In this document: piece by piece, positions 149-45,029 of the stretch
Numbering within the stretch: position 1 is the stretch's first letter
How the letters are laid out: every line of letters starts with the position of its first letter
Source of the DNA: Patescibacteria group bacterium
Lineage (GTDB): Bacteria; Patescibacteriota; JAQUNI01
NCBI GenBank assembly: GCA_028717685.1
Contig: JAQUNI010000003.1
Span: forward strand, 64,311 to 128,310
Direction of reading: 5' to 3'
Length of the DNA: 64,000 nt
Position numbers and translations under genes: made by a program
The notes under the pieces: model-generated
What the model saw: the letters and a program-made list of their open reading frames with translations, nothing else
Told to the model about the DNA's origin: nothing
The model's database searches: none

Positions 149-895
149 TTATGATAAGGAATTTTTTATTTTTTTTAGCCTTATTTTGGTGGTAAATTCC
201 AAAAGGTCCCAAATGTATTGTCCCGCGTTAAGTTTAGATTTACCGTATCTGCGATCCGTAAAGGCAATGGGCACCTCTGCCACCTTGGCACCGGCGCGAT
301 ATAGGGCATAGGCAAATGAAGGCTGAAAGATATAGCTCTTTTTTTGCCAAGGGATGTCGGATAAATCCGTTTTTTGGTAAAGGCGAGTTGTAAAAGCCCT
401 GAAGGAGGGGGTAAAATCGGAGATTTCGCGGACACCCAGCATAGCGCGGCAAAGAAAATTAGCGCCCCTGCTAAAAACATCGCGATAGAACTCCAGCCTA
501 TTTTCGCCGCCAGAAATGAAACGTGAAGCTTGGACAAAATTAAAGCCTTGATCAATCTTTTGGATAAAGCGAGGGATATCATCAGGATTATGGGAAAGAT
601 CAGCATCAATCTGCATTAAGATATCAGCTTGCAATTTTTCAATCGCGAGATCATAACCGCGTTTCAAGGCGATACCAATTCCTCTTTGTTTTACATCTAG
701 AAGATGAACTTTGGGGTTATTTCGGTTTATTTTTTCCACAATTCTTCCTGTTCCATCAGGTGAATGACTGTCTGAAATAATAATAGAGAGGTTGCATGAG
801 GGGATTTTAGGCTCTTGTTTTAAAACCTCGGCAATGATTTTCCGGATATTTTCCCTTTCGTTATAAGTAGGAATAATGACTGCTAGATTAAGCAT
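149..895 (-). CDS. GT2 polyprenol-phosphate sugar transferase (Dpm1/GtrB-like)
   Basis: IIPTYNEREN...DADLSH motif, soluble GT2 of ~250 aa; overlaps the next gene by 13 nt (operon). Confidence 0.75.
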   Translation of the reverse strand: MLNLAVIIPTYNERENIRKIIAEVLKQEPKIPSCNLSIIISDSHSPDGTGRIVEKINRNNPKVHLLDVKQRGIGIALKRGYDLAIEKLQADILMQIDADLSHNPDDIPRFIQKIDQGFNFVQASRFISGGENRLEFYRDVFSRGANFLCRAMLGVREISDFTPSFRAFTTRLYQKTDLSDIPWQKKSYIFQPSFAYALYRAGAKVAEVPIAFTDRRYGKSKLNAGQYIWDLLEFTTKIRLKKIKNSLS

Positions 896-3516: not shown

Positions 3517-5200
3517 ATGTACTATTTTTAACTTTTTGCAACTTCTTTTTCATTTTTTCAATCTTTGAGTTTAATTTTTTAATCTTAAGCTCTTTTTTGC
3601 GCATTTTTTTAGATAAAAGATCAATTTTTTCCTTGATTTTTTTTCTATAGGTTGTTCCGAAAAATCTTAAAAACAAAAAAGTTAATAAAAAACTATAAGA
3701 CAGGGCGAGTAAGCCGTTTATTCGGGAGGATTCCCGAAAGAGCCAGCCAAAATTTTTAAGACAAGGAATGTCAAAAAGGAACTTTTGATATAAATTATAA
3801 TGCCAGATTGGCATCGTGGACATAATGGCCGCAAAAATTCCTAAAATTGAAAAAAAGATTGTATATTTGTTTCTTAAGGAAGGAAATAAAGGGATTAGAA
3901 GAATAAAAGGCAGGATAAAAATCAAAATTTTAAAATAAAGATTTAAAACTTTACTTTCTGTAGGTTTTGCATTTAAATTTAAAGTTTGGATAATGGGATT
4001 AATTTTTTCTTTTGGTTTTTCAATATATTCTTTGGTCAGCATATAGCCAGGAGTTTGGGGAGTGTTTCTCGCAAAACTTGTTTTAACATAGGGAATGAGC
4101 CAATGGCTGGAGAAGAGAATAAAACAGAGAATACAAATAAAGATATTAGCGATATTTTTTAAAAAATTTGAATAATTGAGCCCCTTTAACCCATTCTTCA
4201 AAAGGGCATTTAGGATTTCAATAATTATGAATAATCCTAACATTATAGACGCATATACTAAATAATGAGGAGAAAAAGAGATAAAATTTAAAAGAAAAGC
4301 CAGAATGACAGCAAAACGCGCTTTTTGGACTTCAATGAGTTTGATAAATATAAGTAAAATCAGAGGAAGAAATAGGTAGGCAATCCAGTGATAAAAATGA
4401 GAAATACGGGATAGCGCATAGGGATTAAAGATATAAAATATTACCAAAAATGAGCTGTAAAGTTCTAGATAATTTTTTTGCTTAATAAAATTTTTTAAAA
4501 TTTTCTTTCCTAAAAAATATAAAGACAGTACACCTATAAACAGTACTTCTGAAATCACAAGCTTTATAGTCAATTCTGCTGACAAATGCAACAAACGATT
4601 AAATAAAGAATTGATTAAAACAAATGGAAATATATTTGTTGTTATGCCTTCGGTGAAGCTTCCGTCATTATTCCACAAAAACCATATATTCCCGAGAACC
4701 CTTTCTTGCTGGATGGGAAAACTAATATCCCCTATCTCAATCTGACCTTGACTTACTAAAACTTTTTGAAAAAGAACTAAGGTTAGAAAGACTAAGATAG
4801 CAACATTGATTTTTTCATAATCTATGTTTCTAAAGGTCTTTAAAGGGATGCGATTATCTTTTTCTATTTTTTGTTTTGTGAGAGATATTTTAGTATAGGT
4901 TAAAACACTGATAGCAAGAAATAAATAGGCAAACTTCGCGGCGAGATCAGCCAGGATGAGATCCTTAAAGATCATAAAGATCGGACATAGACTCAGAGAA
5001 ATCAAACCCAAAACAGCTGAAAGCCTGATTGAAATTTTAAGGATAATGGAACTGACAAGGGCACCAGTGAGCACAAGAATATAAATGGGCGCATTCAAAA
5101 GATAGAGCGAGATTAACACAATGCTAAGCCACAGGAAATAATAAGGGAGTGGATGGCGAACCCTAAAATTTTTAATACTTTTTATTACTTTTGAGAACAT
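3509..5200 (-). CDS. polytopic integral membrane protein (>=10 TM) with C-terminal Lys-rich coiled tail; possible GT-C/polymerase-like
   Basis: hydropathy pattern only; no recognisable catalytic motif. Confidence 0.45.
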   Translation of the reverse strand: MFSKVIKSIKNFRVRHPLPYYFLWLSIVLISLYLLNAPIYILVLTGALVSSIILKISIRLSAVLGLISLSLCPIFMIFKDLILADLAAKFAYLFLAISVLTYTKISLTKQKIEKDNRIPLKTFRNIDYEKINVAILVFLTLVLFQKVLVSQGQIEIGDISFPIQQERVLGNIWFLWNNDGSFTEGITTNIFPFVLINSLFNRLLHLSAELTIKLVISEVLFIGVLSLYFLGKKILKNFIKQKNYLELYSSFLVIFYIFNPYALSRISHFYHWIAYLFLPLILLIFIKLIEVQKARFAVILAFLLNFISFSPHYLVYASIMLGLFIIIEILNALLKNGLKGLNYSNFLKNIANIFICILCFILFSSHWLIPYVKTSFARNTPQTPGYMLTKEYIEKPKEKINPIIQTLNLNAKPTESKVLNLYFKILIFILPFILLIPLFPSLRNKYTIFFSILGIFAAIMSTMPIWHYNLYQKFLFDIPCLKNFGWLFRESSRINGLLALSYSFLLTFLFLRFFGTTYRKKIKEKIDLLSKKMRKKELKIKKLNSKIEKMKKKLQKVKNSTYA

Positions 5201-5209
5201 TTGGATATT

Positions 5210-7765
5210 TTAAGAAATTGTCTTTAAAAACCGCTGACGCCTTGAATTTAATTTGAAATAGATTGCAAAGATGATCAGTAAGAATAATGTAAGCAGACTA
5301 ATCCCTAAACAAATATAGATAATATTTTGTTTCTTGAATTCAATAATTAATTCTATATCCAGGGAACCATTCTCGTTTAATTGAACAAATTCCGGGAATG
5401 AATTTTGAAGATAATCAAGATCTAAATACCAAGCGTTCGCATAACCGTTGACTTGGAAGTGATATTTTTCATCCAGAGCTCGCAAGGATATTGATTCCAA
5501 AAGTTTGCCAGAAGGGATATTATTGTCCTGTGTTGCATTTTGAAAGGTTGGCGATATATACTCGTTGTTTTTATTATTTTCAGTAAATCTGGTTGGATAT
5601 ATTTTCCAGAATTTATGGAATTGGTTGGAAAATATAAGGGGGAAAGATTTAGTAATATTTGAAATTCTGATTTTATATTTATAGGGGAATATTTCTTTAT
5701 ATTCAATCAGAGCGTTATTTTCTGAAGTTTTTTCTAAATTTTGTTGAATAAAATCAGGGGCATTCTTAATATATGCAATTCTTTTATCTTTACTTTCTTC
5801 AATGTCTGCTTTTTGAGGAGGGGTATAGACTATACGGTTCGGAATATAAAAGATTGGTAAAAAATTTTCATCTTTAACTTGGTAAAGAGTGATTGCATAT
5901 TTCCCCTTAAGATCATTTATTTCTTTATATATTTCATACGGCGATCTCACATCATTGGGCAGGGAGTTGACATATTTTGGAGTGAAGAGAAAATAATCTT
6001 TTTCTTTGATAAAATTTTCGCTATTCAAAATTTTTTCAAAGAAATGATAGTCATAGTATTCGGTTGTGGAATCCTTTTTGCTATAATATTGATTATAGCG
6101 AGAGTCAACATCTCTTAATAGAATGATATTTTTCACATTAAGTATTTTTAGAATTTCCGGTTTCAAAATGGATTCCCCGGTCAAAAGCCCTTCTTTGTAA
6201 GTTGGAGGGTCAATATTTCGGATTGATAATATTGGTTTATTAATTAAAGAATAAGGAGCGGGCCAGCCTTGATTGGAACCCTTTTCCCAGTATTGTTTAG
6301 TCCCATACACATAATATGGCAAAATGAGCGTCCTATTAATTAATGTTTTGTCTTCTAAATCTTTTTTTAGTTCATAATGATAGCTTGGCACTTTTTCATA
6401 AGGGGAAGCCAATGAGCCGTTTAAATGCATTTTATTTAGGTTGTAGGCGGCCATGCTTGGCCAAATTGTATAAAGGAAAGAAAGAATAAAGAGGGAGACA
6501 AAAGTGATTTTAAGGGTTTTGTTTTTAGTTCTCTCAATGAGGAGTTTAAGAGCAAAAGCAAGCAATATTGCATAGATAAAAATAATATTTAAATTTACTT
6601 TATCGGGGCTTCTTAGGATTGTAAAAATGTTAAAATGAACATAAAAATACTTAAATACCGCCCCCAATGGAGAAGTTACGCCGGCCGCGATTGAGAGCAC
6701 AAAAAAGAGATAAACATAATAAAATACCAGCTTAGTGTTTTTTTTAATGAAGAAGATGGGCAGGAAGATGAATACAACCAAGGCGTAGGTTAAAAACAGG
6801 CCCAGAGGAGTATAGAAGTAATAGTGATAAGGATGATAATAGTCATAATATGCGGCTGCTCTGAAAGACCAGTTGCCAAGCAGACGGATTGCCTCATAAT
6901 ACTCCATTGCCGATGTATCAAAGGTTCGCAGTAATCCACCTTGGATGTTTGTTAAAGTTCCCAGGAATAATTCAATGTCATTATAAAGCCAATAAAGGTT
7001 TAATAAAATTGTTAAGAAGATTATTCCAACAATCGTTAAATGCAAGGGAATTAATTTATGATATGCCTTCTTTTTGATTATTTTAATTAAGGTATAAAGG
7101 TAATAAAATACAAAAGCGAATAGATAAATATTCGCATAGGAAATGTGGCTAACGCCATTGATTGCTAAAGATAATAAAATACTTATCATCCCTATGAAAA
7201 AAATTTGCTGTTTTATACTAACTTTTTTCAAGGTTTGCCTAAGAGCAAGGATGTAAAAGGCAAATGTAAAGGGGAAGAAAGACAAAATGGGAGAATAAAT
7301 CGGACTGAAAAAAATTATAAGGTGAAAGGGATTATAAACGTAAAATAAAGAGCCCAATATAGAATATACTATATTTAATTTGAATATCTTTCTCAAGAAA
7401 TAATACATCCCAGCAAGAGGAAGATAATACTGAAATATAAAAAGCATTGACAGATTAGCAACCACATCAGAGTTAAAGATTTTGTACAGAAGGAATTGCG
7501 AAAGGTACCAAATTAAGGAAGAAAGAAATGATGTTTCGCCTAAACAATCATGATTCCAGGTAAATTTATGTTTTTGGAAATAATAGTTCCCGAATACTAA
7601 GAGAGAGGTGTCGTCACCAAGGCCGACTGCATATTTTTTTACAAAAATTATAAAAATAGCAAACGGTATTAAAAATAATAAGAGAAAGATGGCAAGGCGT
7701 TTTAATAATTTATGCTTTCCGAAAAAAATATAAATTTTTTTCAGGTTGCTAATGAAATTTTTCAT
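5210..7765 (-). CDS. GT-C-fold-like membrane glycosyltransferase (putative)
   Basis: 851 aa; multi-TM N-terminal half with GLGDD acidic motif right after TM1 (GT-C hallmark position), large extracytoplasmic domain, C-terminal TM. Confidence 0.5.
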   Translation of the reverse strand: MKNFISNLKKIYIFFGKHKLLKRLAIFLLLFLIPFAIFIIFVKKYAVGLGDDTSLLVFGNYYFQKHKFTWNHDCLGETSFLSSLIWYLSQFLLYKIFNSDVVANLSMLFIFQYYLPLAGMYYFLRKIFKLNIVYSILGSLFYVYNPFHLIIFFSPIYSPILSFFPFTFAFYILALRQTLKKVSIKQQIFFIGMISILLSLAINGVSHISYANIYLFAFVFYYLYTLIKIIKKKAYHKLIPLHLTIVGIIFLTILLNLYWLYNDIELFLGTLTNIQGGLLRTFDTSAMEYYEAIRLLGNWSFRAAAYYDYYHPYHYYFYTPLGLFLTYALVVFIFLPIFFIKKNTKLVFYYVYLFFVLSIAAGVTSPLGAVFKYFYVHFNIFTILRSPDKVNLNIIFIYAILLAFALKLLIERTKNKTLKITFVSLFILSFLYTIWPSMAAYNLNKMHLNGSLASPYEKVPSYHYELKKDLEDKTLINRTLILPYYVYGTKQYWEKGSNQGWPAPYSLINKPILSIRNIDPPTYKEGLLTGESILKPEILKILNVKNIILLRDVDSRYNQYYSKKDSTTEYYDYHFFEKILNSENFIKEKDYFLFTPKYVNSLPNDVRSPYEIYKEINDLKGKYAITLYQVKDENFLPIFYIPNRIVYTPPQKADIEESKDKRIAYIKNAPDFIQQNLEKTSENNALIEYKEIFPYKYKIRISNITKSFPLIFSNQFHKFWKIYPTRFTENNKNNEYISPTFQNATQDNNIPSGKLLESISLRALDEKYHFQVNGYANAWYLDLDYLQNSFPEFVQLNENGSLDIELIIEFKKQNIIYICLGISLLTLFLLIIFAIYFKLNSRRQRFLKTIS

Positions 7766-7992: not shown

Positions 7993-9012
7993 TTATTTAA
8001 ATTTAGGCACCCCGATCATTAGAAAAGTTTTTAATTTGCCAGAATTCCAATTCATAATAGATAGAATTTTTAAATCACCCACTTTTCTTCTCCTTTGGAT
8101 TATTTTTCTTTGTTTAATAGTATCTTGAATATTAATAATATTCCAAAAAATTGCTCTCCAAACAATTATAAACATTTTAAAATTACCGGAAACAAAGTAA
8201 AATAGCGATTCTAAAATATCTTGGCTTATGGATAAGGGAATAATCCAAAACAGGTTTATTAGTCTATAGTTTTTTAACAAATTTCTTAAATTATTTTTAT
8301 TGACTTCATATCTTCGAAAGGTAGGAATAATATGACGTTTATTTTTTTTATATCTTGTCCTTTCTGACGAACCGCCGCCGAAATGAAATAAATGAGCATT
8401 ATGACAAATCGCTAATCTCATGCCAAATAAGTGGGCTCTCCAAGATAGGTCTGTATCCTCGCTATACATATAATATTTTTCATCGAAGCCACCTAGTTTG
8501 ATAAATTTTTTTTTGTCAATCATTAAGGCGCAGCCATCAATGTAAAACAGTTTTCGATAAGGCACACTAATTGGATAACCCAGAAAATCCATCCCCGGGT
8601 ATTGCTTCTTTGATAAATCAATTTTATTTTTACCTGAAGCTTGCGGTCCAATTAAATCAAAATCGTTTTTATTTTTAAAATCAATGAGCTTTTCGAGCAG
8701 ATCACTAGGGGATCGGGTATCGTTATTTAAAAGAAACAAGATGTCTCCCTTGCTATTTTTAACCCCGATATTATTAGCGGTTCCAAAACCTAAGTCTTTA
8801 TCATTCTGGATCACGGTCATATCTTTATAATTCTTTTTTATAAAATCTATGCTGTCATCATCGGAAGCATTATCCACCAGAATAATTTCAAAATTTTTAT
8901 ATGTCTGAGCGTATAAGGAATCCAAACAATTTTTAAGCCATTTTTTCCCGTTGTGGTTAGTTAAAATTATTGAGACTAATTGATTCATCTTATTGTTTTT
9001 TAAGGCAGCCAT
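7993..9012 (-). CDS. GT2 glycosyltransferase (rhamnosyltransferase/WbbL-like)
   Basis: SIILTNHNGKKWLKNCLDSL...ILVDNASDD...GFGTANN motifs. Confidence 0.75.
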   Translation of the reverse strand: MAALKNNKMNQLVSIILTNHNGKKWLKNCLDSLYAQTYKNFEIILVDNASDDDSIDFIKKNYKDMTVIQNDKDLGFGTANNIGVKNSKGDILFLLNNDTRSPSDLLEKLIDFKNKNDFDLIGPQASGKNKIDLSKKQYPGMDFLGYPISVPYRKLFYIDGCALMIDKKKFIKLGGFDEKYYMYSEDTDLSWRAHLFGMRLAICHNAHLFHFGGGSSERTRYKKNKRHIIPTFRRYEVNKNNLRNLLKNYRLINLFWIIPLSISQDILESLFYFVSGNFKMFIIVWRAIFWNIINIQDTIKQRKIIQRRRKVGDLKILSIMNWNSGKLKTFLMIGVPKFK

Positions 9013-9250: not shown

Positions 9251-9733
9251 TTATATTAAGCCCCATTCGTAGGGTATTTTTTTTGAGAAAGGATCTAATC
9301 TTCGGATTTCTTGAGGGTCATGTGAAATTGTCGAGCAGTTGGCTATCAGGGCTTCTTTTTTTCCAAAACCCTGAAAGCCATTCCAAACCAAGGGGGGTAC
9401 TTTAATGAGGAGATAATTGTCTTCCCCCGTAAAAATTTCCGTTAGATGACCTTTGGTTTCAGAATTCTCTCGGTCATCATAGAGCACTAGCTTTATATTA
9501 CCCGCGATGACTGCATAATTTAATTCCATTTTTGTATGAATATGCCATCCCTTGATCACTCCCGGATATACGCTAGAAAAGTAAATTTCCCCAAAACCAT
9601 TAAATTCCTTGTCTTCCTTTTTGAGCATATGCAAAATGCGTCCCCTTTCATCAGGGATTATATTTAATTTTTTAATAATTACTCCTTGGATCATCTGCCC
9701 CTTAATCCCGGAGATTTGTTCATCCATTGCCAT
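9251..9733 (-). CDS. cupin sugar-nucleotide epimerase/isomerase (RmlC/FdtA superfamily), paralog of 42090..42545
   Basis: DERGRIL, GWHIHTK, KLVLYDDR motifs shared with the 42090 paralog. Confidence 0.55.
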   Translation of the reverse strand: MAMDEQISGIKGQMIQGVIIKKLNIIPDERGRILHMLKKEDKEFNGFGEIYFSSVYPGVIKGWHIHTKMELNYAVIAGNIKLVLYDDRENSETKGHLTEIFTGEDNYLLIKVPPLVWNGFQGFGKKEALIANCSTISHDPQEIRRLDPFSKKIPYEWGLI

Positions 9734-10649
9734 TTAGATAATAATAATAAGTTTTTTCTAGACCATAATCTAAGTTATAAAGCGGTTTCCATTTAAGTAT
9801 TTTTTTTAATTTAGAATTGTCGCAATTTACATAGTAAACCTCATTTTCAATATAAGGTTTCGCTCCCCAAATGATATTAAATTTTTTATTAGCAATCTTT
9901 TCGATTTTTTTTGTTATTTCCTTAATGCTGTATGCTTTGTCGTAACCTACGTTAAAACCCTCAAATTTAACAATTTTATTAAAATGTTTCAGCGCACAAA
10001 GATAAGCTTGGGCGATGTCTTTGACATAGGTGAAGTTCCATCTCTGTTCGCCGCCAGAAAACTCGATTTCCTCCCCTTTATTGAGAGATTTAATCAGAAA
10101 AGCCATCAGTTTTTCGTTATCCCGATCACCAAAAGGGGCAAATAGTTTGAAATCGATCACTTTAAAATTATAACTATTGGCATAGTACTTTAAAATTTCT
10201 GCAAAAGATAGTTTGGTGGCAGCGTAAAGATTATAAGCACATTTTTCATCCTCTTCTTTAAGGGGGAGATTTTTCATCTTATATTCGGAGAATGTGCCAG
10301 TATTGATAAAATATTTTACCTCCGCTTGAATAGCCAATTGACAAAGAAGGGAAGGAAATTTGACATTTGTGTCAATCATCTCTTCCACTTCGTTAAGATT
10401 ATTGTGCTTCTTAATATATTTCGTGGCGAGATGGATTATACAATCAATATGGCTTTCCTTAAAAATTAAACCTAATTCATTTTTGTCGGAGTAATAAATT
10501 TTAACTGCACGGCGGAAGGGCTCTATTCGTGTATTATTGGAGGCAGAGTGCAATAAGGCAATGACCCTGTAATTTTTTTTCAATAAATTTTCTAACAAGT
10601 GAGAGCCAATAAAACCGGCCGCTCCTGTAACTAAGACTGTTTTTATCAT
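9720..10649 (-). CDS. NAD-dependent epimerase/dehydratase (extended SDR)
   Basis: VLVTGAAGFIGSHL Rossmann start, YxxxK region, C-terminal KKILKWKP. Confidence 0.75.
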   Translation of the reverse strand: MIKTVLVTGAAGFIGSHLLENLLKKNYRVIALLHSASNNTRIEPFRRAVKIYYSDKNELGLIFKESHIDCIIHLATKYIKKHNNLNEVEEMIDTNVKFPSLLCQLAIQAEVKYFINTGTFSEYKMKNLPLKEEDEKCAYNLYAATKLSFAEILKYYANSYNFKVIDFKLFAPFGDRDNEKLMAFLIKSLNKGEEIEFSGGEQRWNFTYVKDIAQAYLCALKHFNKIVKFEGFNVGYDKAYSIKEITKKIEKIANKKFNIIWGAKPYIENEVYYVNCDNSKLKKILKWKPLYNLDYGLEKTYYYYLNGNG

Positions 10650-10683
10650 TTTTTTAAATTTTTAATGTTTTTATGGCCATTAT

Positions 10684-10751
10684 CCAGTATTAAAATATCC
10701 GTTGATTTGTCTTGTTATATAAGCTTGCATATCTATTTTGTTTGAGTAGAA
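10684..10751. repeat. 68-bp direct repeat, copy A (intergenic, 5' of epimerase 9720..10649)
   Basis: 65/68 identical to 14501-14568. Confidence 0.8.
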
Positions 10752-10991
10752 CAGAAAATTTATTCCCACAACTTGCTGCGGATGAGTAATTTATTATCCT
10801 TTCGTAAAAGTATCTAAAATTCTCGTATTAATTTTTTGTTTGCACAGGCAGGTCGCTAAATAATGAAGCCCTCAAGGAGGTCATGCTCCTATTTTTTATT
10901 GGCCATTTTGTAATTCGTCATTTCTTCTATGTTTTTTGGAGGATATTGGGGGTATAGACTAAGATAACATCTAATATTTTCTTATTATGAT

Positions 10992-12182
10992 TTAGACCAA
11001 ACACGATTGGTAAGCATTAATGATTGTTTTTATATTTTTTTCTTCACTGTAATTTTCTAAGGCAAATTTTCTGCAATTAATACGCATTTGGTCAAGATTT
11101 TTTGGATTTTGGCTTAATTTTTCAAGTTCATGGCTTATATTTTTTATGTGGGGACGCATTATGAACCAAATTTTTCCATGACCGCTTTTAATATTTAATC
11201 CCACTTTTCTCTCTTCACCAAAATATTTAGTCCGATCAGGTAAAATAGGGGGTACTCCGCAACTCAAAGCATGCATTGTTACACGACCGACGTAATCTTG
11301 ATCAACTGACCCCCAGAGCAGTAAATCAGCCGCTGAAAGCCAAAAAGGGATCTTCTTGTTTGGTACGCTGCCGAGATAGTGAACATTTTTGTGAGTAGCC
11401 GCTAATTTTTCCACCTCCATCCTTAAGGGTCCGTCACCAATAATAAAAAACTGAATCTTTTCTGATGTTTGTTTAATGATTTTTATTACTTCATGCACAC
11501 CTTTTTCTTCAGTTAGTCGGCCAATAAATAAAACCATAAAACAGCCTTGCTGAAGATTTAGTTTATTTCTTATCTTAATTTTGTTTCGGGGTTTGAATAT
11601 TTTAATTGTATCAATCCAACAATGACAAATTTTTATTTTCTTGGCTGAAATACCCAGAGAAATTAAACACTGGCCGCATTTTTTTGATAAAAGAGTAATA
11701 ATATTAGCTTTATCTAGGATTTTTTTAGCAAATTTTGCTGATAATGATTTTTTTTTAAATTTATATATTGTGTATAAACTAATAATGGACTTTTTTGAAA
11801 ACAATTTACCGATTATACCCGCTGCCAATCCTGCGGATAGACCATGGCCATGAATAACTTGAATTCTTCTAGAAAGAATAGTGGTATAAAAAACGCTAAA
11901 AATAAAAATTCCCAGAAACAGATAAAGAAACTGTAAGGCTGGATATTTTGTCAATCTATAGAATAAATTAAATTTTATCCATGGCAGGCGAAAGATTTGC
12001 AATCCCAACTTTTTTTCGTAGAGAGGAGCTTTAAAGGAAGAAGTTAAAGGGGAATAAGTAATAACGATAGTCCTCCATTGTCTTTTTGTCAATCCTTGCA
12101 CTAAATCATCTAAATAACTCTCTACACCGCCTATATTTGGGCTAAAAAATGGTGATAGAATTAAAACTGATTTGTTGTACAT
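10992..12182 (-). CDS. GT4 glycosyltransferase
   Basis: LILSPFFSPNIGGVESYLDDL N-terminus, paralog of 17204..18340; C-terminal EX7E-type region. Confidence 0.75.
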   Translation of the reverse strand: MYNKSVLILSPFFSPNIGGVESYLDDLVQGLTKRQWRTIVITYSPLTSSFKAPLYEKKLGLQIFRLPWIKFNLFYRLTKYPALQFLYLFLGIFIFSVFYTTILSRRIQVIHGHGLSAGLAAGIIGKLFSKKSIISLYTIYKFKKKSLSAKFAKKILDKANIITLLSKKCGQCLISLGISAKKIKICHCWIDTIKIFKPRNKIKIRNKLNLQQGCFMVLFIGRLTEEKGVHEVIKIIKQTSEKIQFFIIGDGPLRMEVEKLAATHKNVHYLGSVPNKKIPFWLSAADLLLWGSVDQDYVGRVTMHALSCGVPPILPDRTKYFGEERKVGLNIKSGHGKIWFIMRPHIKNISHELEKLSQNPKNLDQMRINCRKFALENYSEEKNIKTIINAYQSCLV

Positions 12183-12203
12183 TGAGCTTATCTCAAAATT
12201 TTT

Positions 12204-12686
12204 TTAATGATGCAGATTATCTTTTAAGGGTTTGGCGGGAATACCGACCACAGTAACGCCCGCGGGGATATCTTTTGTAACCACAGACCCAGCTCCTATA
12301 AAAGCACCCTTACCTATTGTGATGCCTCCTAAAATGATTGCCCCGCTGCCAATAACAGCTTTTTCTCTGACTAAAGTAGGTAAACATTTCCATGTTTTTT
12401 TTAAAGCATTTTCCACGGAAGGACATTTGTCATTAATAAAAGTGACATTATGTCCGATAAATACATCCTTCTCTATCGTTACCCCGCTACAGATAAAACT
12501 ATGGGATTGGATGCGGCATCTTCTGCCAATTTTTACATTGTTTTGAATTTCAACAAAGGGACCGATCATACAATTATCTCCAAGCTTACAGCCATATAAG
12601 TTGACAAAATCATTGATTTTAACATTTTGACCCACCAAAACATTTTTAATACTTTGCTTTGGGTTATTTTCAGTGAGCTTTCTCAT
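12204..12686 (-). CDS. hexapeptide-repeat (left-handed beta-helix) sugar N-acetyltransferase (FdtC/QdtC-like)
   Basis: repeated [LIV]GxxxxI hexapeptides across 160 aa. Confidence 0.75.
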
Positions 12687-13834
12687 ATTTTTAATAAATT
12701 TTTGGAAAAGAATTTTTTTAACTCCACTTTAAGATAATCGATCTCTTGTTTTTTTAATTCTGCATACATTGGCAAAGATAAAATTCGTTTGGATAATTTT
12801 TCTGCTATGGGAAAATCCCCTTTTTTATATCCCAGTTCTTTGTATGCTTTTTGCAAGTGAATAGGCAAAGGATAATGAATTCCGCAAAAAACGCCTCTCT
12901 CTTGTAAAAATTCCATCATCTCGTTACGTAGATCTGTTTCTATAACAAATAGATGAAAAACATGTTTATGGTTTTTTTCAATCATGGGTAATTTTATAGG
13001 CAAATCCTTGAGTTGTTCTATATAGTATGCAGCTGCCTCTCGTCTTTTTTTATTCCACTCATCCAAATATTTTAGTTTTACTGCCAAAATTGCCGCCTGA
13101 AGAGCGTCCAGTCTTGAATTAGTGCCTTTTTCCCAATGAACATATTTTTCTTTTTGTCCATATTCTCTTAATCTTTTAATTTTTTCAGCCATTTTTAGGT
13201 TGTTAGTCACCACTGCCCCACCATCACCATAAGCTCCTAAATTTTTTCCAGGATAAAAACTAAAAGCCGCAGCAATGCCAAAATTTCCTACCTTTTTGTT
13301 TTTGTAAATTGCTCCGTGTGCCTGGCAGGCATCTTCAATGACAGGCAGTTTATACTTTCTGGCAACTTTTAAAATTTCATCCATCTCTGCTGGCTGTCCG
13401 TAGAGATGCACAGCTATTATTGCCTTTGTTTTTGAAGTAATTTTTGGCTCAATTGAATTTGTATCAATGTTGTAACTATCTTCATCACAGTCCACAAAGA
13501 CAGGTTTGGCCCCGGTCATACTCACAGCTAGGGCTGTGGCAATAAAAGTATTAACTGGCACAAGCACCTCGTCCCCTTCTTGAATATTTAAAGCTTGGCA
13601 AATAAATTTCAAAGCATCAGTGCCAGAATTTACCGTCACGCAATACTTAGCCCCGCAATATTTTGCAAACTCTTTTTCAAAAGTTTGAATCTTTTCTCCT
13701 CCGATAAAAGAAGCAGTATTCAGCACTTCTCGGATAGCGTGATCAATTTCTGATCTTATGGCTTGATATTGTCTTTTTAAATTAACAAAATCAATTTGCG
13801 TAAATTTATAACAATTTATATTTAAAAGTATCAC
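12683..13834 (-). CDS. DegT/DnrJ/EryC1/StrS-family PLP sugar aminotransferase (FdtB/QdtB-like)
   Basis: family-typical N-terminus ...[33 protein letters not shown] and length. Confidence 0.85.
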
Positions 13835-14237
13835 CCTTTGTCCATTCTTTGTCTGTATAATTTAATAAAGCAGCAGTTTTAGAAATATTTTGAAAGACAT
13901 GGGCAATTTTAGGGCCAATTTCCAGACGGTTATATTTGTTAGAATTCCCATTTAAGATTAATTTTTTTTCTTCTCCCGTGTTTAGATCTTTGAGATGGAC
14001 CCTTAGTTGGCCTGAAATAATACCAAACCACTCTCTCCATCTTTTATGATAATGATTTCCCCTTATTATATTTGCCTTATCAAAGGTCACAAAATATATT
14101 TGGCCAAACTCTCTGATCTTTTTGTTTAATTCTCTGCGTTGTAAAAAAACGATTAATTGCCCTCGGTCATCATTATATTTTTCCAATTGTTGAAGTTGAA
14201 AATCCATAATCAAGTTAGGATATAAAAGATATTTCAA
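13806..14237 (-). CDS. WxcM/FdtA-like cupin (NDP-4-keto-6-deoxyhexose 3,4-ketoisomerase-like)
   Basis: DDRGQL, RGNHYHK, LRVHLKD motifs resembling FdtA; sits beside aminotransferase and acetyltransferase. Confidence 0.6.
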
Positions 14238-14273
14238 ACCAGTTTCCCTTTTTGCAGTTTATTATGCGCTTTA

Positions 14274-14486
14274 TCAATCTATTAATTTTTCTAACTCACC
14301 CCATCTTTTCACATCTAGGATTCCGATTTGGAATTTGATCTCCGGTTTCCATTTTAATATTCTTTTCACCTTTTTAATATCTGCATAGTAATGTCTCACA
14401 TTAAAAGCCACAACTTTAATTTTAAGCGGTCCACCTGAGCCAATATTGAGAGTTTGAAAATTAACTTCGTTTTTTTTCAGCATCAA
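14274..14486 (-). pseudogene. collapsed remnant of an NAD-dependent epimerase (short start plus C-terminal KRILKWKP motif)
   Basis: 70-aa ORF; its C-terminus is homologous to the C-terminus of 9720..10649; lies immediately 3' of repeat copy B. Confidence 0.45.
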
Positions 14487-15585
14487 GACACTCGCCCTTA
14501 CCAGTATTGAAATATCTGTTGATTTGTCTTGTTGTATAAGCTTGCATATCTATTTTGTTTGAGTAGAATGTTTTGTACCATAATAAGGTTTCCCGGATCG
14601 CCTTGGCAACATTCAATTTGGGCTTCCATTTAAGGTTATGAATCGCTTTGGAGTTGTCTAATTTCAGTATTTTAGTTTCGTGTTTTGAACTGTCTTCACT
14701 GACGGTGAAGCTCCCCTTCTTCAAAAAATCAATTGCCATATTGACTACACTAACGACATCCAGCATACTTTCATTTTGAGGACCAAAATTCCAAGAGCCC
14801 ATCTTGTCCGTATGACCTTCATATAAGCTTTGAGCCAATAATAGGTAGCCCCTTAATGGTTCCAGAACATGTTGCCAAGGGCGAATGGCGTCGGGACTGC
14901 GAATAACGAGATTCTGATTGTTGATAAAAAAGGCTCTAATTAAATCCGGAAGCAGCCTGTCTTTATTCCAATCTCCTCCACCAATAACATTGCCGGAACG
15001 CGCGGAAGCAACCAGAGGATAATTTCCGGCTTGATTATTTTTGAAATTAAAGAAGGAGCAAATATGAGAATTCACTGCCAAGTCCGCGCAAGCTTTGCTG
15101 TTACTATAGGGGTCGTAACCTCCAAGCCGGTCATCTTCTTTAAAGGCGACATTTTTTTCTAAATCCTGATAAACCTTATCAGTGGTAATAATAATTCCTG
15201 CTCTAATATTATTAAGGCGGATAATCTCCAACACGTTGATTGTTCCAATAACGTTGGTTGTGTAGGTAGAGCGGGGATTATCATAAGAGTTTCTGACCAA
15301 GGCTTGAGCGGCAAGGTGAAAAATGATATCGGGTTTGAATTTTTTCACTATCCGATTAAGCTGGTGGAAATTTCGGATATCAACTTGGTGATGTTCTATA
15401 TAATCTTTTAAATTAAGGATGTTAAATAGATTAGGATTTGTGTTTGGCGTTAGCGCACAGCCGCAGATTTTTGCGTCCCAATTGAGAAGAATTTGAGTCA
15501 ACCACGCGCCTTTAAAGCCAGTATGTCCCGTGATTAGGATTCTTTTGCCGCGAAAGAATTTTTTTAAGCTTTTTTTCCCCATCAC
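14461..15585 (-). CDS. rfbG: CDP-glucose 4,6-dehydratase
   Basis: ILITGHTGFKGAWL N-terminus typical of RfbG/DdhB; SDR fold. Confidence 0.8.
   Translation of the reverse strand: MMGKKSLKKFFRGKRILITGHTGFKGAWLTQILLNWDAKICGCALTPNTNPNLFNILNLKDYIEHHQVDIRNFHQLNRIVKKFKPDIIFHLAAQALVRNSYDNPRSTYTTNVIGTINVLEIIRLNNIRAGIIITTDKVYQDLEKNVAFKEDDRLGGYDPYSNSKACADLAVNSHICSFFNFKNNQAGNYPLVASARSGNVIGGGDWNKDRLLPDLIRAFFINNQNLVIRSPDAIRPWQHVLEPLRGYLLLAQSLYEGHTDKMGSWNFGPQNESMLDVVSVVNMAIDFLKKGSFTVSEDSSKHETKILKLDNSKAIHNLKWKPKLNVAKAIRETLLWYKTFYSNKIDMQAYTTRQINRYFNTGKGECLDAEKKRS
14501..14568. repeat. 68-bp direct repeat, copy B (forms the C-terminal tail of the 4,6-dehydratase CDS)
   Basis: 65/68 identical to 10684-10751. 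Confidence 0.8.
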
Positions 15586-15605: not shown

Positions 15606-16388
15606 TTAATCCCATATTTTCCAGGGGGCATTGCCGCTTTCCCACATTTTATCCAATTCTTTCTTGTCATATAGTTTATCCATAGGTTTCCAAAAGCCAT
15701 GATGAGGAAAAGCATAGAGTTCATTGTCCTTTGCTAAATTTTCCAAAGGTTCTTTTTCGAAGACTGTATCGTCGCCTTGGATATAATCAAAAACCTTGGG
15801 TCCTAAGACAAAAAAGCCGCCATTAATATAAGTTTGATTATCTGTTTTTTCGCTAAACTTTGTTATTCTGGATTTTTGGTTTAAAGACAAAGCACCAAAA
15901 CGTCCTTCGGGGATGACGGCAGTCAGCGTAGCAATTTTAGCGTGTTTGCGATGAAATTTTAAAAGTTTCTTAAGGTCAACGTTCCCTACCCCGTCTCCGT
16001 ACGTGGCCATAAAAGTTCCTTTGCCTATGTACTCCTTGACTCTTTTAATACGGCCACCAGTCATCGTATTTTCGCCAGTGTCAACTAAAGTTACTTTCCA
16101 TTGCTCACCGCGATTTTTATAAAATTTGGTCTTCTTGTTTATAAAATCAAAAGTGACATCGCTATGGTGCAGGCAATAATTATTAAACCATTCTTTAATA
16201 TAATATCCTTTATATCCTAAGCAAACTATAAAGTCATTCAATCCAAAATGAGAATAGATTTTCATGATATGCCATAAAATCGGCTTATCTCCTATTTCCA
16301 CCATTGGTTTTGGTTTGTTGACCGTTTCTTCACTTAAGCGGGTTCCGGTCCCTCCGGCTAAAATGACTACTTTCATTTTGTTTTCCAA
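15606..16388 (-). CDS. rfbF: glucose-1-phosphate cytidylyltransferase
   Basis: KVVILAGGTGTRLSEET..KPKPMVEIGDKPILWHIMKIYS is near-consensus RfbF/DdhA. Confidence 0.85.
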   Translation of the reverse strand: MENKMKVVILAGGTGTRLSEETVNKPKPMVEIGDKPILWHIMKIYSHFGLNDFIVCLGYKGYYIKEWFNNYCLHHSDVTFDFINKKTKFYKNRGEQWKVTLVDTGENTMTGGRIKRVKEYIGKGTFMATYGDGVGNVDLKKLLKFHRKHAKIATLTAVIPEGRFGALSLNQKSRITKFSEKTDNQTYINGGFFVLGPKVFDYIQGDDTVFEKEPLENLAKDNELYAFPHHGFWKPMDKLYDKKELDKMWESGNAPWKIWD

Positions 16389-16546: not shown

Positions 16547-17200
16547 TTAAGACAAAAGCATTTTTTTTCTAAACACAATCATTTGTCCTTTTGGCATAAT
16601 GCCAAAATAGCCCTTATTCCATTTATAATTTACTAATTCAAAATTATGCTTTTTACAAATATTGATAAGTGTTTTTTTAGTCAAGAATCTAATATGGGGA
16701 TTATTCGGATAAAAGAATTTATCCCAAAAAAATGTAGCAATGATAATTTTTTTCAATAAATTAAAATCTGTGGTTGTAATACAAAAGAAACCATTCTTTT
16801 TTAACACCCTATTAATTTCCGATAGACATCTATCAATATCTAATAAGTGCTCAATTACTTCTACAGCGAAAACAGTATCAAAAGAATTATCTTGAAAGCT
16901 TAAACTTTCAAGATCTTCTTGTTTAAAGATTAAATTTTTATATTTATTTTTTCCGATTTCTAATGCTTTTTTTGATAATTCAGAGGCAACAGCCTTTTTT
17001 ATAATTGTGGTTTTTGAATTTAAAAAGTTTAAAAATGTACCATCGCCAGCGCCTACATCTAAAACGGTTTTACCAATGTAGTTTTTAAAAAATTCTAAAT
17101 GCCATAGAAGATTTTCCTCCGTCCATTGAGGGGGTAAATATAACATACCCCCGTTTATATTTTTATTCCAATATTTATCATAATAATTTTTATCTTTCAT
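16547..17200 (-). CDS. class I SAM-dependent methyltransferase
   Basis: VLDVGAGDGTF motif I. Confidence 0.7.
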   Translation of the reverse strand: MKDKNYYDKYWNKNINGGMLYLPPQWTEENLLWHLEFFKNYIGKTVLDVGAGDGTFLNFLNSKTTIIKKAVASELSKKALEIGKNKYKNLIFKQEDLESLSFQDNSFDTVFAVEVIEHLLDIDRCLSEINRVLKKNGFFCITTTDFNLLKKIIIATFFWDKFFYPNNPHIRFLTKKTLINICKKHNFELVNYKWNKGYFGIMPKGQMIVFRKKMLLS

Positions 17201-17203: not shown

Positions 17204-18340
17204 TTAATAATATTTGATAATGGAATTTATATTTTTTTCTGAAAAATTTGTCTCAGCATATCTTCTGCAATTTTGAGATAATCTCAAATATAATTCTTTA
17301 TTGATGTACAATTTTTCTATCGCGGCTTTAATATTTTCAACAGTTGGATCTAGTAATAGTGAAACACTCTTATCCAATGCCTCCGGGATTCCGCCTCTAT
17401 TTGATCCAACAACTGGTAGTCCGCAGGCCACGGCTTCAATTATTGATCTACCAAATCCCTCCTCATATTGTGAAGGAGCGCAAAAAAGATCTGCTATATT
17501 ATAATATTTGTACATTATTTTGTTTTCGACGGACCCAATAAATTTCAAATTACTTAATTCTCTTTCTTGCTCTTTTAAAAATTTTTCCTCCGGACCATTA
17601 CCAACAAAAACAAAATTAATTTGAGGCAATCTTTTTGCCACTTTAACCAAGACTTTTACCCCCTTTTTTTCTAGCAGTCTTCCTGCAAAAAGAACCGTAA
17701 ATTTATCCGCAATATTTAGTTTGTTCCTCAACAAAGTTTTATTTAGAGGTTTGAAAATATTGAGGGCAATCCAATGTTTAAATAAGTCCAATTTTGCTTT
17801 GTGTAGACCAAAAGAGATTAATTCATTATATGATCCTTTGGATAAACATAGAACTTTATCAGTTTTATTTAATATGTAGACAATTCTTTTCGCTGTTTTT
17901 GAATCTTTGTCCAATTCATAGATAGCATGGATGCTAACAATTAATTTTTTATGGAATAATTTTTTTAAAATTCCTCCTATTAAAGCGGCGTTGAGGCCGT
18001 GGGCATGGATTACATCTATTCTATTTTTATTAGTTAAGATCCAAATAAATACTCTGCAGAATAAATATGGTGTTAAATATAAAAAGTCAAGAAGGGGAAA
18101 CTTTTCTACTTTATGAAAAAAGTTTTTGCCAGACCATCTATATCTTTTTATATAGATATTTTTACCTTTCTTTTCGCGAGTTGATGCCTTTATTGAGCTG
18201 GTTAGGGGTGAGTAAGTTTGGACAAAGATATAATAGCCCAAATCATCTAATTTTTTCACCAAATCATCTAGATGTGTTTCTACGCCGCCTACGTTTGGGC
18301 TAAAGAAAGGAGTTAAAATTAATACTTTTTTATTTTTCAT
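17204..18340 (-). CDS. GT4 glycosyltransferase
   Basis: LILTPFFSPNVGGVETHLDDL; paralog of 10992..12182. Confidence 0.75.
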   Translation of the reverse strand: MKNKKVLILTPFFSPNVGGVETHLDDLVKKLDDLGYYIFVQTYSPLTSSIKASTREKKGKNIYIKRYRWSGKNFFHKVEKFPLLDFLYLTPYLFCRVFIWILTNKNRIDVIHAHGLNAALIGGILKKLFHKKLIVSIHAIYELDKDSKTAKRIVYILNKTDKVLCLSKGSYNELISFGLHKAKLDLFKHWIALNIFKPLNKTLLRNKLNIADKFTVLFAGRLLEKKGVKVLVKVAKRLPQINFVFVGNGPEEKFLKEQERELSNLKFIGSVENKIMYKYYNIADLFCAPSQYEEGFGRSIIEAVACGLPVVGSNRGGIPEALDKSVSLLLDPTVENIKAAIEKLYINKELYLRLSQNCRRYAETNFSEKNINSIIKYY

Positions 18341-18378: not shown

Positions 18379-19818
18379 TTAAGACATTGCTGATTTCGTT
18401 CCCCCTTGAGTTATTGCTTGAAAGGCGGCCTTTAGGAGTCTTGCATCTTCACGAAGAAAATCGAAGTTGCTCAAATCCCACCAGATTCTTCTTAAAATCC
18501 ATTCGGGGTTGAGGTAAAATCTGCGGTAAGCTTGCTTTTTGGCTTTTACTAAATCTTCTAGTGTCAGGTCGCGGGGAATATACTTGGGCCAAATTGATTT
18601 GAACTCATCCCCCAATTCCCCTCTGATGTACCGATCAATTAAATTAATATTGATTTTTCCCTCTTCAACGCCAGTTTTGTACAAATCCGCTCCAGGCATA
18701 ATAACAGTTATATGTATACCCATGACATCCACCTTAGAAATTAGACCAAAATTGACTGTGTCTTTAATTTCTTTCTTAGTTTCTCCAGGAAAACCTAGCA
18801 TCAGAAAAATGTTGCTTTGAATGCCGTACTTTCTGCACCATCTAATCGCGTTAAAGATATCTCGATTGTTAACATTTTTGTGGATGACTTCATTACGGAT
18901 TCTTTCATTGCCAGACTCAACACCGAAGAGTAGGTTATTGCAGCCAGCTTTTGCCATTAATTTAATCAATTCTTCGTTAACACTATTTGCCCTAGTCATT
19001 GCGCCCCACGTAGCGTTTAATCCCTTTTTGATTAATAATTGGCAAAAATTTTTAATATTTTCTCGATTTAAACTAAAAGTGTCATCATGGAAATGGAATT
19101 TTCCATTATATTGATTATATATAGTTTCCATTTCCTTAATGATGTTCTCTGCCGATCGAAAACGATAGTTTGTTTTATGGACAGGCCGACTGCAAAAACA
19201 GCAATGAAAAGGACAGCCACGTGAGCCAATCATTGAGGCTCTTTTATAAATTGCCGCGGCATCGTTTGTCAATTTGGTTTCAACTCCTCTGTGATAATTA
19301 GAAACATCGGTCAAATGTCGGGCGGGAAATGGTAAATCGTCAAGATTTTGTATTGGTTCTGCATAAAATACTCCTTTCACACGCTTGCCAGCTAATACTT
19401 TCTGAACAATTTTCAACATAGTGAGCTCTCCTTCACCAATAACATAAAAATCAAAAATCGGGAATCGCCGGGCGAAATCCGGATCTGCACTGATGTGGGG
19501 ACCACCTAAACCAACCATGGGACCATGGTTCCCCCACTCCTTCTTCATCTCCGAGGCTAACCGATAAGCAGAACGAATACTGGGTGATAAAGCGGATAAG
19601 CCAACGACTTTAGGATTTTCCTTCTCGATTTCTTGCATTAGTTTTTTTAGAGTTAATCCTTGCACTGTGACGTCGTACAACTTAACCGAAATATTATGTT
19701 TCTCTAAATAAGCAGCAATATAAAGGAGTCCTAAAGGAGGATCGCTGACTTCATCGCCCATCGGCTCATTTTTTCTGCTAAAAGTTATAGGACAATTAAT
19801 TAATAAAACTTGCGTCAT
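18379..19818 (-). CDS. cobalamin-binding-domain radical SAM enzyme (class B type)
   Basis: N-terminal Rossmann-like B12-binding region followed by GCPFHCCFCS (CX3CX2C). Confidence 0.8.
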   Translation of the reverse strand: MTQVLLINCPITFSRKNEPMGDEVSDPPLGLLYIAAYLEKHNISVKLYDVTVQGLTLKKLMQEIEKENPKVVGLSALSPSIRSAYRLASEMKKEWGNHGPMVGLGGPHISADPDFARRFPIFDFYVIGEGELTMLKIVQKVLAGKRVKGVFYAEPIQNLDDLPFPARHLTDVSNYHRGVETKLTNDAAAIYKRASMIGSRGCPFHCCFCSRPVHKTNYRFRSAENIIKEMETIYNQYNGKFHFHDDTFSLNRENIKNFCQLLIKKGLNATWGAMTRANSVNEELIKLMAKAGCNNLLFGVESGNERIRNEVIHKNVNNRDIFNAIRWCRKYGIQSNIFLMLGFPGETKKEIKDTVNFGLISKVDVMGIHITVIMPGADLYKTGVEEGKININLIDRYIRGELGDEFKSIWPKYIPRDLTLEDLVKAKKQAYRRFYLNPEWILRRIWWDLSNFDFLREDARLLKAAFQAITQGGTKSAMS

Positions 19819-38908: not shown

Positions 38909-38916
38909 AAATTTTA

Positions 38917-38985
38917 GTAATCAGTAATCAGTAATTAGTAATCAGGGAATTTATCCTTTTACCGATTACCGATTACCGATTACGA
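38917..38985. repeat. hyphenated inverted repeat built from GTAATCAG heptamer tandems, (gtaatcag)n ... (ccgattac)n
   Basis: ~29-bp arms; related element at 58891-58981. Confidence 0.65.
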
Positions 38986-40386: not shown

Positions 40387-40399
40387 AATGAAATTTCAT

Positions 40400-42051: not shown

Positions 42052-42089
42052 CTATTTAAGTTTACCAGAAAAAGTCCTAGAAGGGCAAG

Positions 42090-42545: not shown

Positions 42546-42554
42546 AAATTGAAT

Positions 42555-45022: not shown

Positions 45023-45029
45023 CAGGGAA

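Follow-up and report, generated by a model that had tools for sequence, protein, structure and literature searches.

The window analyzed here comprises 64,000 nucleotides of contig JAQUNI010000003.1 from a Patescibacteria group bacterium, a member of the candidate phyla radiation (CPR). Our subject is a pair of direct repeats that brackets a block of sugar-pathway genes in one of its glycan loci, between ddhB, the gene for a CDP-glucose 4,6-dehydratase, and a gene of the short-chain dehydrogenase/reductase (SDR) family; all genes of the locus lie on the minus strand. The two repeat copies, copy A at 10684-10751 and copy B at 14501-14568, are 68 nucleotides long and identical at 65 of 68 positions. 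A repeat search reproduced exactly the coordinates and identity reported in an initial annotation of this DNA, and the pair is the sole outstanding direct repeat between 8 and 18 kb. Mismatches fall at plus-strand positions 10692/14509, 10700/14517 and 10717/14534, leaving a longest perfect block of 34 nucleotides (10718-10751 = 14535-14568). The edges are sharp: when the surrounding 240 nucleotides were aligned, identity was at background immediately outside both ends. Searched with up to 3 mismatches, the 34-mer was found at just the two repeat sites, against 0.00 occurrences expected in 100 shuffles, and a scan of metagenome contigs with an invariant 22-mer of the repeat returned one chance match of 24 nucleotides, on an unrelated contig without open reading frames (ORFs).

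Results

Copy B lies in the 3' end of ddhB (14461..15585), which encodes a protein of 374 residues from a GTG start and follows ddhA (15606..16388), a predicted glucose-1-phosphate cytidylyltransferase (397.9 bits to the TIGR02623 equivalog, cutoff 300). The dehydratase matches the TIGR02622 equivalog with 441.7 bits (cutoff 278.45), from residue 10 to 358 of 374 and model position 1 to 351 of 352; at NCBI it is MDD5627249.1, called as 373 residues on a 128-kb contig of a Patescibacteria-group metagenome-assembled genome (MAG). The initial annotation had described the repeat as the last ~23 codons of the dehydratase, forming an atypical C-terminal tail. The position is correct, in that copy B covers the genuine last 22.7 codons of ddhB (codons 340-362, F340-G362; FYSNKIDMQAYTTRQINRYFNTG), but copy B is itself the canonical C-terminus: among the C-termini of 120 homologues it corresponds to the conserved terminal helix of the family (FY..K.DM..YT..QI..YF), and most of these proteins end 0-6 residues past ...YF. 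Relatives of ddhB read ...YFNIR and copy A reads ...YFNTG, each with a stop right after the repeat. Only the 12 residues that follow copy B in the window (14461..14500; KGECLDAEKKRS, then a stop) are unusual. Translated in the SDR frame, this stretch gives RASVLMLKK... and aligns to SDR-family residues from about 220 on; the tail is SDR-pseudogene DNA translated in a different frame, ddhB having lost its original stop codon at the left junction.

We also considered the 12-residue tail together with the string MLKKNEV as an alternative allele of the ddhB/rfbH junction, as the tails of two distant dehydratases (P0004 and P0007) are similar, and rejected this because, in the SDR frame, the alignment to SDR-family proteins runs without interruption from residue ~220 to the C-terminus. 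Natural basic extensions of 10-20 residues overlapping the rfbH start (for example, ...NTVKGEEKIEKRDRVASR) occur in several distant CDP-glucose dehydratases (P0004, P0005, P0007 and L014 9100-9170, on JGI contig Ga0613821_000001), so that the ddhB tail is not by itself a sign of damage.

Copy A (10684..10751) too is in the ddhB frame. It encodes FYSNKIDMQAYITRQINGYFNTG, directly followed by TAA, and thus carries a ddhB 3' end that has been orphaned. The adjoining segment (10656..10683) comprises the final nucleotide of the Gly codon of ddhB, the old TAA stop (10682-10680) and the first ~25 nucleotides of rfbH (also called ddhC), as seen from an alignment with three related contigs, L007, L008 and L009: ATAATGGCCA(C/T)AAAAACATTAAAAATTT. 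The rfbH ATG (10680-10678) overlaps the old ddhB stop, as it does in the relatives, and copy A with its 3' flank is 92.8% identical over 97 nucleotides to the ddhB-end/rfbH-start of L008 and L009. Because it is in the ddhB frame, ends in TAA and is followed by a stub of the rfbH start matching L008 and L009, copy A is evidently the old ddhB/rfbH boundary, a dehydratase gene end whose body is missing. The initial annotation had placed copy A in an intergenic region just 5' of an epimerase gene; its location 34 nucleotides upstream of that gene (10649..9720) holds, but the DNA is a gene-end remnant rather than anonymous intergenic sequence.

The relatives that lack the block of genes between the repeats reveal what this locus looked like previously. 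A search with the dehydratase returned a 97% identical protein of 361 residues ending in ...YFNIR, whose cluster has two further members. In L008 and L009, the gene order is ddhA-ddhB-rfbH-SDR-cupin-GT2, where GT2 is a family 2 glycosyltransferase, with no cassette and no repeat; L007 is a short contig of 2.9 kb that ends in rfbH, likewise with neither. Over ddhA-ddhB these three contigs are 94.7-96.4% identical to the window, and all have rfbH where the window has the cassette. A more distant contig, L015 (ddhB 65% identical), has the same order of ddhA-ddhB-rfbH-SDR-cupin-GT2. The 427-residue DegT-family product of the third gene is RfbH/DdhC, a CDP-4-keto-6-deoxyglucose 3-dehydrase, since the L008 protein scores 655.3 bits against the NF011936 cutoff of 423. 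No gene for the E3 reductase DdhD lies between ddhA and GT2 in L008, L009 or L015, so the reductase partner of the 3-dehydrase would be encoded elsewhere or be dispensable. When genome contigs were scanned with the dehydratase, the hits were only ~30% identical (Pelagibacteraceae, Methanobrevibacter), and no related reference genome was among them.

The genes that follow copy A in the window are the counterparts of the downstream part of this operon. They comprise an SDR-type nucleoside diphosphate (NDP)-sugar epimerase/reductase of 309 residues (9720..10649; PF01370, E 1.6e-44), an RmlC-like cupin that is a putative NDP-4-keto-sugar epimerase (9251..9733; PF00908, E 6.7e-10; syntenic in L008, L009 and L015) and, after the operon, a GT2 glycosyltransferase (7993..9012; PF00535), with a GT2 in the equivalent place in the same three relatives. 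Because L008, L009 and L015 share the order and many homologues of the SDR gene sit on contigs with ddhB homologues, ddhA-ddhB-rfbH(ddhC)-SDR-cupin-GT2 is, as judged from synteny, the ancestral operon. Divergence is not uniform along it. ddhA is 94.7% identical to that of L009 at the nucleotide level, with a synonymous divergence (dS) of 0.28, and ddhB has a dS of 0.20 against the same relatives, whereas dS is ~1 in the SDR gene (~1.0, and 76% amino acid identity, against the L008 copy) and saturated in the cupin gene. This jump from 0.20-0.28 to ~1 indicates that ddhAB is a recently shared or exchanged block beside diverged modules of Patescibacteria glycan loci. Within the block, mismatch density against L009 is fairly even, with no rise toward the 3' end, and no breakpoint inside ddhB was detectable in this profile. 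ddhB, cluster member P0121, is 95-96% identical to the ddhB of the relatives as far as position 14505.

Upstream of ddhA, the window and the L008/L009 loci are unrelated. Here the window has, directly upstream and in the same orientation, a methyltransferase (16547-17200), a family 4 glycosyltransferase (GT4; 17204-18340) and a class-B (B12-binding) radical SAM enzyme (18379-19818), and these genes hint at a methylated or otherwise modified sugar in the glycan. At the distal end of the glycan locus (883-7765) are three large consecutive ORFs of 877, 563 and 851 residues with no Pfam match; the corresponding slot of L008 holds an 845-residue PMT_2-family protein and an 882-residue ORF without a match. 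The window ORFs may be divergent membrane glycosyltransferases or polymerases.

Comparison of L008 with the window by BLAST gives three pieces. The first pairs L008 1-1296 with window 15800-14505 (94.8% identity; the end of ddhA and ddhB), the second L008 1233-1329 with window 10751-10656 (92.8%; copy A, the stop and the initial ~25 nucleotides of rfbH) and the third L008 2568-3976 with window 10663-9263 (76.5%; the final 20 nucleotides of rfbH, the SDR gene and the cupin gene). The second and third alignments have in common an 8-nucleotide microhomology, AAAAATTT (10656..10663), a motif that L008 carries at each end of rfbH. The window has therefore lost ~1.24 kb of rfbH, keeping ~25 nucleotides of its 5' and ~20 nucleotides of its 3' sequence, and because the deletion end-points overlap by just this 8-nucleotide sequence, the gene was removed by a microhomology deletion between two copies of AAAAATTT.

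The segment between the repeats is 3.75 kb long and contains, in order of transcription, a truncated SDR pseudogene, a trio of QdtA/B/C-like genes, a GT4 gene and a spacer. All four intact genes that the initial annotation had listed between the copies were found there. The first is an FdtA/QdtA-family cupin and putative NDP-4-keto-6-deoxyhexose 3,4-ketoisomerase (13806..14237; PF05523, 49.6 bits against a cutoff of 23), whose best matches of solved structure, 7N67 ('FdtA domain-containing protein') and QdtA 4ZU7, are both weak (E 1.7e-5 and 9e-4). It is followed by a QdtB/FdtB-like C-3 sugar aminotransferase of the DegT family (12683..13834; PF01041, E 1e-124; best solved match the C-3 aminotransferase QdtB 3FRK, E 2.9e-123) and by a left-handed beta-helix N-acetyltransferase resembling QdtC, FdtC and WlbB (12204..12686; Hexapep, E 8e-31; solved matches 7S43, WlbB 3MQG, 4MZU and QdtC 3FS8). 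The complete Qdt/Fdt trio of FdtA-family isomerase, C-3 aminotransferase and left-handed beta-helix N-acetyltransferase is thus encoded together. The last gene is the GT4 glycosyltransferase (10992..12182; PF00534/PF13439); the first ~87 nucleotides of this gene (12182..) and of the GT4 gene upstream of ddhA (18340..) are 76% identical.

A 240-nucleotide non-coding spacer (10752..10991), with stops in all frames, appears to have come with the cassette, and its 3' end forms the right-hand, illegitimate junction with copy A. The spacer showed no nucleotide or translated similarity within the window or to any fetched locus. Just upstream of copy A the spacer contains a weak terminator-like hairpin (10782..10765, minus strand; TCCGCAGCAAGTTGTGGG then AATAAATTTT), which could be the cassette's own terminator; promoter- and terminator-like sites in the region are no commoner than in shuffled sequence. 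We found no integrase, transposase, recombinase or inverted repeats in the cassette, and the ORFs between and around the repeats encode sugar-pathway enzymes or glycosyltransferases. The cassette has a GC content of 0.337, with 0.31-0.39 in its neighbors, and a GC content at third codon positions (GC3) of 0.27-0.33, and neighboring glycan genes span 0.26-0.39. Relative to the rest of the glycan locus, cassette GC and GC3 therefore give no compositional sign of foreign origin; the comparison of GC and codon usage with the flanks that the initial annotation had proposed is uninformative on origin, as the composition is not distinctive.

The canonical Qdt/Fdt substrate, dTDP-4-keto-6-deoxyglucose, is available in the cell through rml genes ~25 kb away (rmlAB at 38-41.4 kb). 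These belong to a second nucleotide-sugar/glycan locus (38015-47324) with an rmlA-like gene (38015-38908), rmlB (40400-41428), a NUDIX hydrolase, an RmlC-like cupin (42090-42545), two GT4s, a GT2 and an O-antigen-ligase-like protein (45957-47324). The rmlD gene of this locus (38980-40386, 468 residues) is fused to an N-terminal YqeK-like HD-phosphatase domain, an unusual fusion.

The left end of the inserted segment, directly after copy B, is a remnant of the C-terminal third of an SDR-type NDP-sugar epimerase/reductase gene (14238..14500). It includes a 70-residue ORF (14486..14274), which the initial annotation had regarded as an internally deleted paralog of the epimerase gene next to copy A. 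A composite of the remnant, built from its versions in the window and in a sister strain, L010, has its best hits among SDR309-family proteins, of which it covers the C-terminal 70-99 residues (35% identity over 92 residues and E 7e-13 in the top hit), and the remnant matches the C-terminal end of PF16363 (E 1.5e-4). The homology to epimerases whose absence the initial annotation had said would count against it is present, with 77 family hits at E<0.01, and the membership of the SDR family and the internal deletion are likewise borne out. The relationship to the window's own SDR protein (9720..10649) is only a distant one, however, at 34% over 71 residues for the composite. The fragment starts at about residue 200-220, with no trace of its 5' two-thirds. 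It also differs between the two strains: the L010 version of the 70-residue ORF has no ATG and an in-frame TAA, retains ~53 nucleotides that are gone from the window and lacks 16 others, and the remnant region as a whole is 88.1% identical with 3 indels (54, 9 and 16 columns), against 95.4% and no indels in the cassette genes. On these alignments, the 70-residue ORF is a decaying, 5'-truncated and internally deleted fragment of a distant SDR paralogue. Because the remnant is the C-terminal third of an SDR gene, the left end of the insert lies inside a gene, as an illegitimate joint predicts.

These comparisons bear on the origin proposed in the initial annotation, in which repeat-mediated duplication of the dehydratase end together with the epimerase gene was followed by gene replacement. 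An internal tandem duplication of 'ddhB-end plus SDR gene', with later divergence and gene replacement in one copy, would account for the presence of SDR-family sequence after both repeat copies, albeit at different distances. We nevertheless regard it as highly improbable. The 68-nucleotide copies are 96% identical as DNA, whereas the SDR sequences share only ~34% of their residues, so that the two pairs cannot date from one event; moreover, the rfbH stub follows copy A and not copy B, and the SDR fragment after copy B begins only at about residue 200-220.

The repeat copies differ by 2 non-synonymous and 1 synonymous changes, a divergence of 4.4% (3/68) that is comparable with that between ddhB alleles of different strains (3-6 of 68). 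Since the divergence is on a par with that of alleles from separate strains, the copies do not appear to have been homogenized; they show no sign of gene conversion and are apparently either old or derived from two alleles.

The assembly itself could in principle have created this arrangement as a chimera, two strains having been joined at a k-mer common to both: the source is metagenome-assembled, the repeat is longer than common k-mer sizes and Logan contigs break there. To set against this are the independent assemblies represented by the Logan contigs (k=31 graph) of runs SRR22315506, SRR22315508 and SRR22315509, accessions for which a literature search returned no paper. Logan contigs 100% identical to the window cover the SDR side in three runs, the ddhB side in two and the cassette in two. 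Those on the SDR side all begin at window position 10747 and those on the ddhB side end at 14539, and a 3,843-nucleotide cassette contig, found in two runs, spans exactly 14564..10722, from inside copy B to inside copy A, confirming the spacer-to-repeat junction. These are the break points that a k=31 graph must give at a shared 34-mer, and a path through the graph that takes every edge one time can only follow the order of the window. The breaking of Logan contigs inside ddhB, together with the ATG start used at NCBI, also explains why a search for the exact ddhB protein from the GTG start found no record. Because contigs from three runs match the window on each side and L010, a different strain, has the cassette between ddhB and SDR sequence on one contig, misassembly is very unlikely, and a chimeric join of this kind is to be regarded as extremely improbable.

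L010 is the only close relative returned by a search with the aminotransferase (93% amino acid identity). On one contig it carries the tail of ddhB, the SDR fragment, all four cassette genes and the first 60 nucleotides of the spacer, but 263 nucleotides that include copy A are missing: L010 1-3663 corresponds to window 14548-10932 (92.9%) and L010 3656-3781 to window 10676-10551. The deletion lies between CCA(T)AAAAACAT repeats, the window having CCAAAAAACAT at 10929..10939 as the upstream member of an imperfect direct repeat and its partner CCATAAAAACAT at 10665-10676, and L010 a single merged copy. L010 keeps the distal rfbH stub and an identical rfbH-deletion junction (GTTAAAAATTT joined to AAAAAAATG). 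Because it shares this junction, L010 must descend from an arrangement like that of the window, with copy A lost later. The cassette genes themselves are well preserved. Between the window and L010 they are 95.4% identical overall (the GT4 gene 96.1%), without indels, with dS of 0.08-0.25 and ratios of non-synonymous to synonymous divergence (dN/dS) of 0.05-0.21 (cupin 0.15, aminotransferase 0.21, acetyltransferase 0.05, GT4 0.21), values that indicate purifying selection on the cassette between the two strains.

L010 thereby bears on the suggestion, made in the initial annotation, that the repeats render the cassette excisable and phase-variable, with homologous recombination between the 68-bp copies popping it out and switching the glycan. 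In E. coli, the minimum for RecA-dependent recombination is about 23-27 bp; the repeats are direct and their 34-bp perfect block is within reach of RecA, so that rare RecA-mediated deletion through this block could occur. The product would be a ddhB of normal length ending in ...NTG and a stop, directly before the SDR-cupin operon, and would resemble the Yersinia ddhAB-altAB module (PMC5399914). The initial annotation had named diverged repeats in a related genome as a finding that would speak against its interpretation, and what was found goes further: the flanking repeats are not both kept wherever the cassette occurs, since L010 lacks copy A yet keeps the cassette under purifying selection. 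There is also no recombinase and no replication function in the cassette, so that its loss would be irreversible and would not amount to phase variation, and the 3/68 differences between the copies, as many as between ddhB alleles of separate strains, argue against ongoing exchange. Furthermore, no relative matches the predicted excision product, as the cassette-free relatives have intact rfbH and are hence ancestral in type, and every contig found with the exact SDR gene of the window breaks at the repeat, with the cassette branch in all three runs. Excision as a working switch is thus unsupported, and we consider it improbable.

Discussion

Our results support a model in which the repeat is probably a recombination scar, left when one glycan module replaced another, and not a working element. 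Three features expected of such scars are found here: relatives share the flanks with different genes between them, gene remnants lie at the junctions and divergence changes abruptly at the boundary. The claim of the initial annotation that a cassette was captured into the locus is the part that fared best, since three relatives with 95-96% identical ddhA-ddhB have rfbH and no cassette at this place, and the segment between the repeats is accordingly best described as a captured cassette on the strength of these comparisons.

The history can be reconstructed as follows. The ancestor had the operon ddhA-ddhB-rfbH(ddhC)-SDR-cupin-GT2, which would have made a CDP-linked sugar of the 3,6-dideoxyhexose type. 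A foreign fragment of 3.75 kb, its left end in an SDR gene and its right end in non-coding DNA, was then, as the comparison with relatives indicates, joined on one side to the last codon of ddhB and on the other to a point 68 nucleotides before the old ddhB stop, so that the last 68 nucleotides of ddhB were doubled. Joining at these two points accounts for two equal, sharply bounded copies with unrelated outer flanks. Copy B completes a working ddhB, and copy A is an orphan with the old stop and the rfbH start. The comparison further indicates that rfbH was deleted between two copies of AAAAATTT, and that pieces without use have been decaying by small deletions, the SDR remnant having suffered different damage in the window than in L010 and copy A having gone from L010. 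As to function, the 3,6-dideoxy branch would have been lost and a 3-acetamido-3,6-dideoxyhexose branch, served by a transferase of its own, would have been gained, changing the surface glycan.

The most economical mechanism for the insertion would be a single exchange within the conserved ddhAB genes or beside them, combined with one illegitimate joint, that is, homology-facilitated illegitimate recombination (HFIR). The far end of the inserted DNA, the 240-nucleotide spacer, has no homology to the recipient, as is expected of an HFIR product. A single crossover of a circularized fragment would be topologically equivalent, and a template-switch insertion with two illegitimate joints would fit equally well.

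Several points weigh against this reconstruction or limit its detail. The related contigs number five in all, and every one comes from a metagenome assembly. In the search with the DegT homologue, only the window strain and L010 were above 70% identity, the next matches (Ca. Scalindua and others, 67-69%) were not syntenic and no donor emerged against which microhomology at the cassette junctions could be read; HFIR, a circular intermediate and template switching are all compatible with the locus. The insertion may have preceded or followed the loss of rfbH. The cassette enzymes may use a CDP-sugar from ddhAB or a dTDP-sugar from rml, both precursors being encoded. Finally, k=31 Logan graphs would be the same for the window arrangement and for its mixture with a deleted form, which allows for a minority of cells that have excised the cassette.

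The possibility of a circular intermediate raises the further question of whether the cassette is a mobile module that needs no recombinase, a circle carrying the 68-nucleotide ddhB end that docks into a similar ddhB by a single crossover and regenerates the repeat. A crossover of this Campbell type predicts a pair of direct repeats that are equal in length, have sharp edges and are flanked on the outside by unrelated sequence, as observed, and ddhAB is a highly conserved block common to otherwise diverged loci. The cassette is known from two genomes only, however, in the same chromosomal context and with a divergence that fits vertical descent; L010 lacks the second copy, no circle junction was observed among the assembled contigs and the module would require a prior fusion of a ddhB end to a truncated SDR gene. 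We therefore hold such mobility to be distinctly improbable. There is likewise but a slim prospect that the ddhB 3' end acts more broadly in Patescibacteria as a recombinase-free site for the docking and undocking of glycan modules. If it did, RecA-mediated deletion would take out the amino-sugar module and at the same time bring a ddhB of normal length back in front of the SDR and cupin genes (ddhA-ddhB-SDR-cupin), a one-way serotype switch at the level of the population, and circularized modules could enter other ddhB loci by single crossover.

A scar left by module replacement has clear parallels in known systems. In the O-antigen loci of Yersinia pseudotuberculosis and Salmonella enterica, recombination swaps the sugar-specific genes that come after the ddh genes, and pieces of former genes persist at the boundaries, as with tyv in the Abe module; one Yersinia module has other genes in place of ddhC (Kenyon, Cunneen & Reeves 2017, PMC5399914; Reeves et al. 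2013, PMC3715488). The window locus similarly combines a conserved ddh block with variable sugar genes, with sharp boundaries at ddh gene ends and remnants at the junctions. It differs in that the host, known from a CPR MAG, is not an enterobacterium, the incoming genes are a Qdt/Fdt-type 3-amino-sugar trio and a GT4 gene instead of dideoxyhexose-specific genes, the scar is a duplicated 68-nucleotide ddhB end and ddhD is absent from the locus. The cassette trio is equivalent, by predicted function, to the enzymes of the dTDP-Qui3NAc and dTDP-Fuc3NAc pathways (QdtA/B/C and FdtA/B/C), but it stands directly behind CDP-glucose genes and not rmlA/rmlB, and the isomerase match to solved FdtA and QdtA is weak.

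HFIR (de Vries & Wackernagel 2002; Prudhomme et al. 2002; Meier & Wackernagel 2003) is discussed in PMC5361080 and PMC3240628. It has been proposed for Vibrio arrays of type VI secretion system immunity genes and for arrays of Rhs orphans, in which a new module displaces the old sequence backward and orphaned gene ends remain. Our locus would resemble such events in having one homologous anchor (ddhAB), one illegitimate joint and an orphaned gene end, although the process here is deduced and not observed. Reported HFIR events usually delete recipient DNA, whereas 68 nucleotides of the recipient were duplicated here. A superficial likeness also exists to integron attC cassettes and att-flanked islands, in that direct repeats bracket a cassette and one of them is the 3' end of a conserved gene. 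Unlike those elements, the locus has no integrase, no attC-like inverted repeat and no tRNA or tmRNA target, its repeat is ddhB coding sequence and L010 lost one copy without effect on the cassette.

In summary, we found an ordinary scar, a known kind of event of which this is a new example in a CPR bacterium. One practical consequence is a warning for annotation, as neither the 70-residue ORF nor the 12-residue dehydratase tail is a gene or a domain; both arose from the junction. The value of the locus is modest and lies in the three-stage record that it provides of the rebuilding of a CPR surface-glycan operon, from L008, L009 and L015 through the window to L010, in which every decay step took place at A-rich microhomologies of 8-12 nucleotides. 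This record indicates that module swapping of the kind familiar from enterobacterial O-antigens also diversifies the glycan loci of CPR bacteria, and it documents deletional clean-up in a reduced genome.

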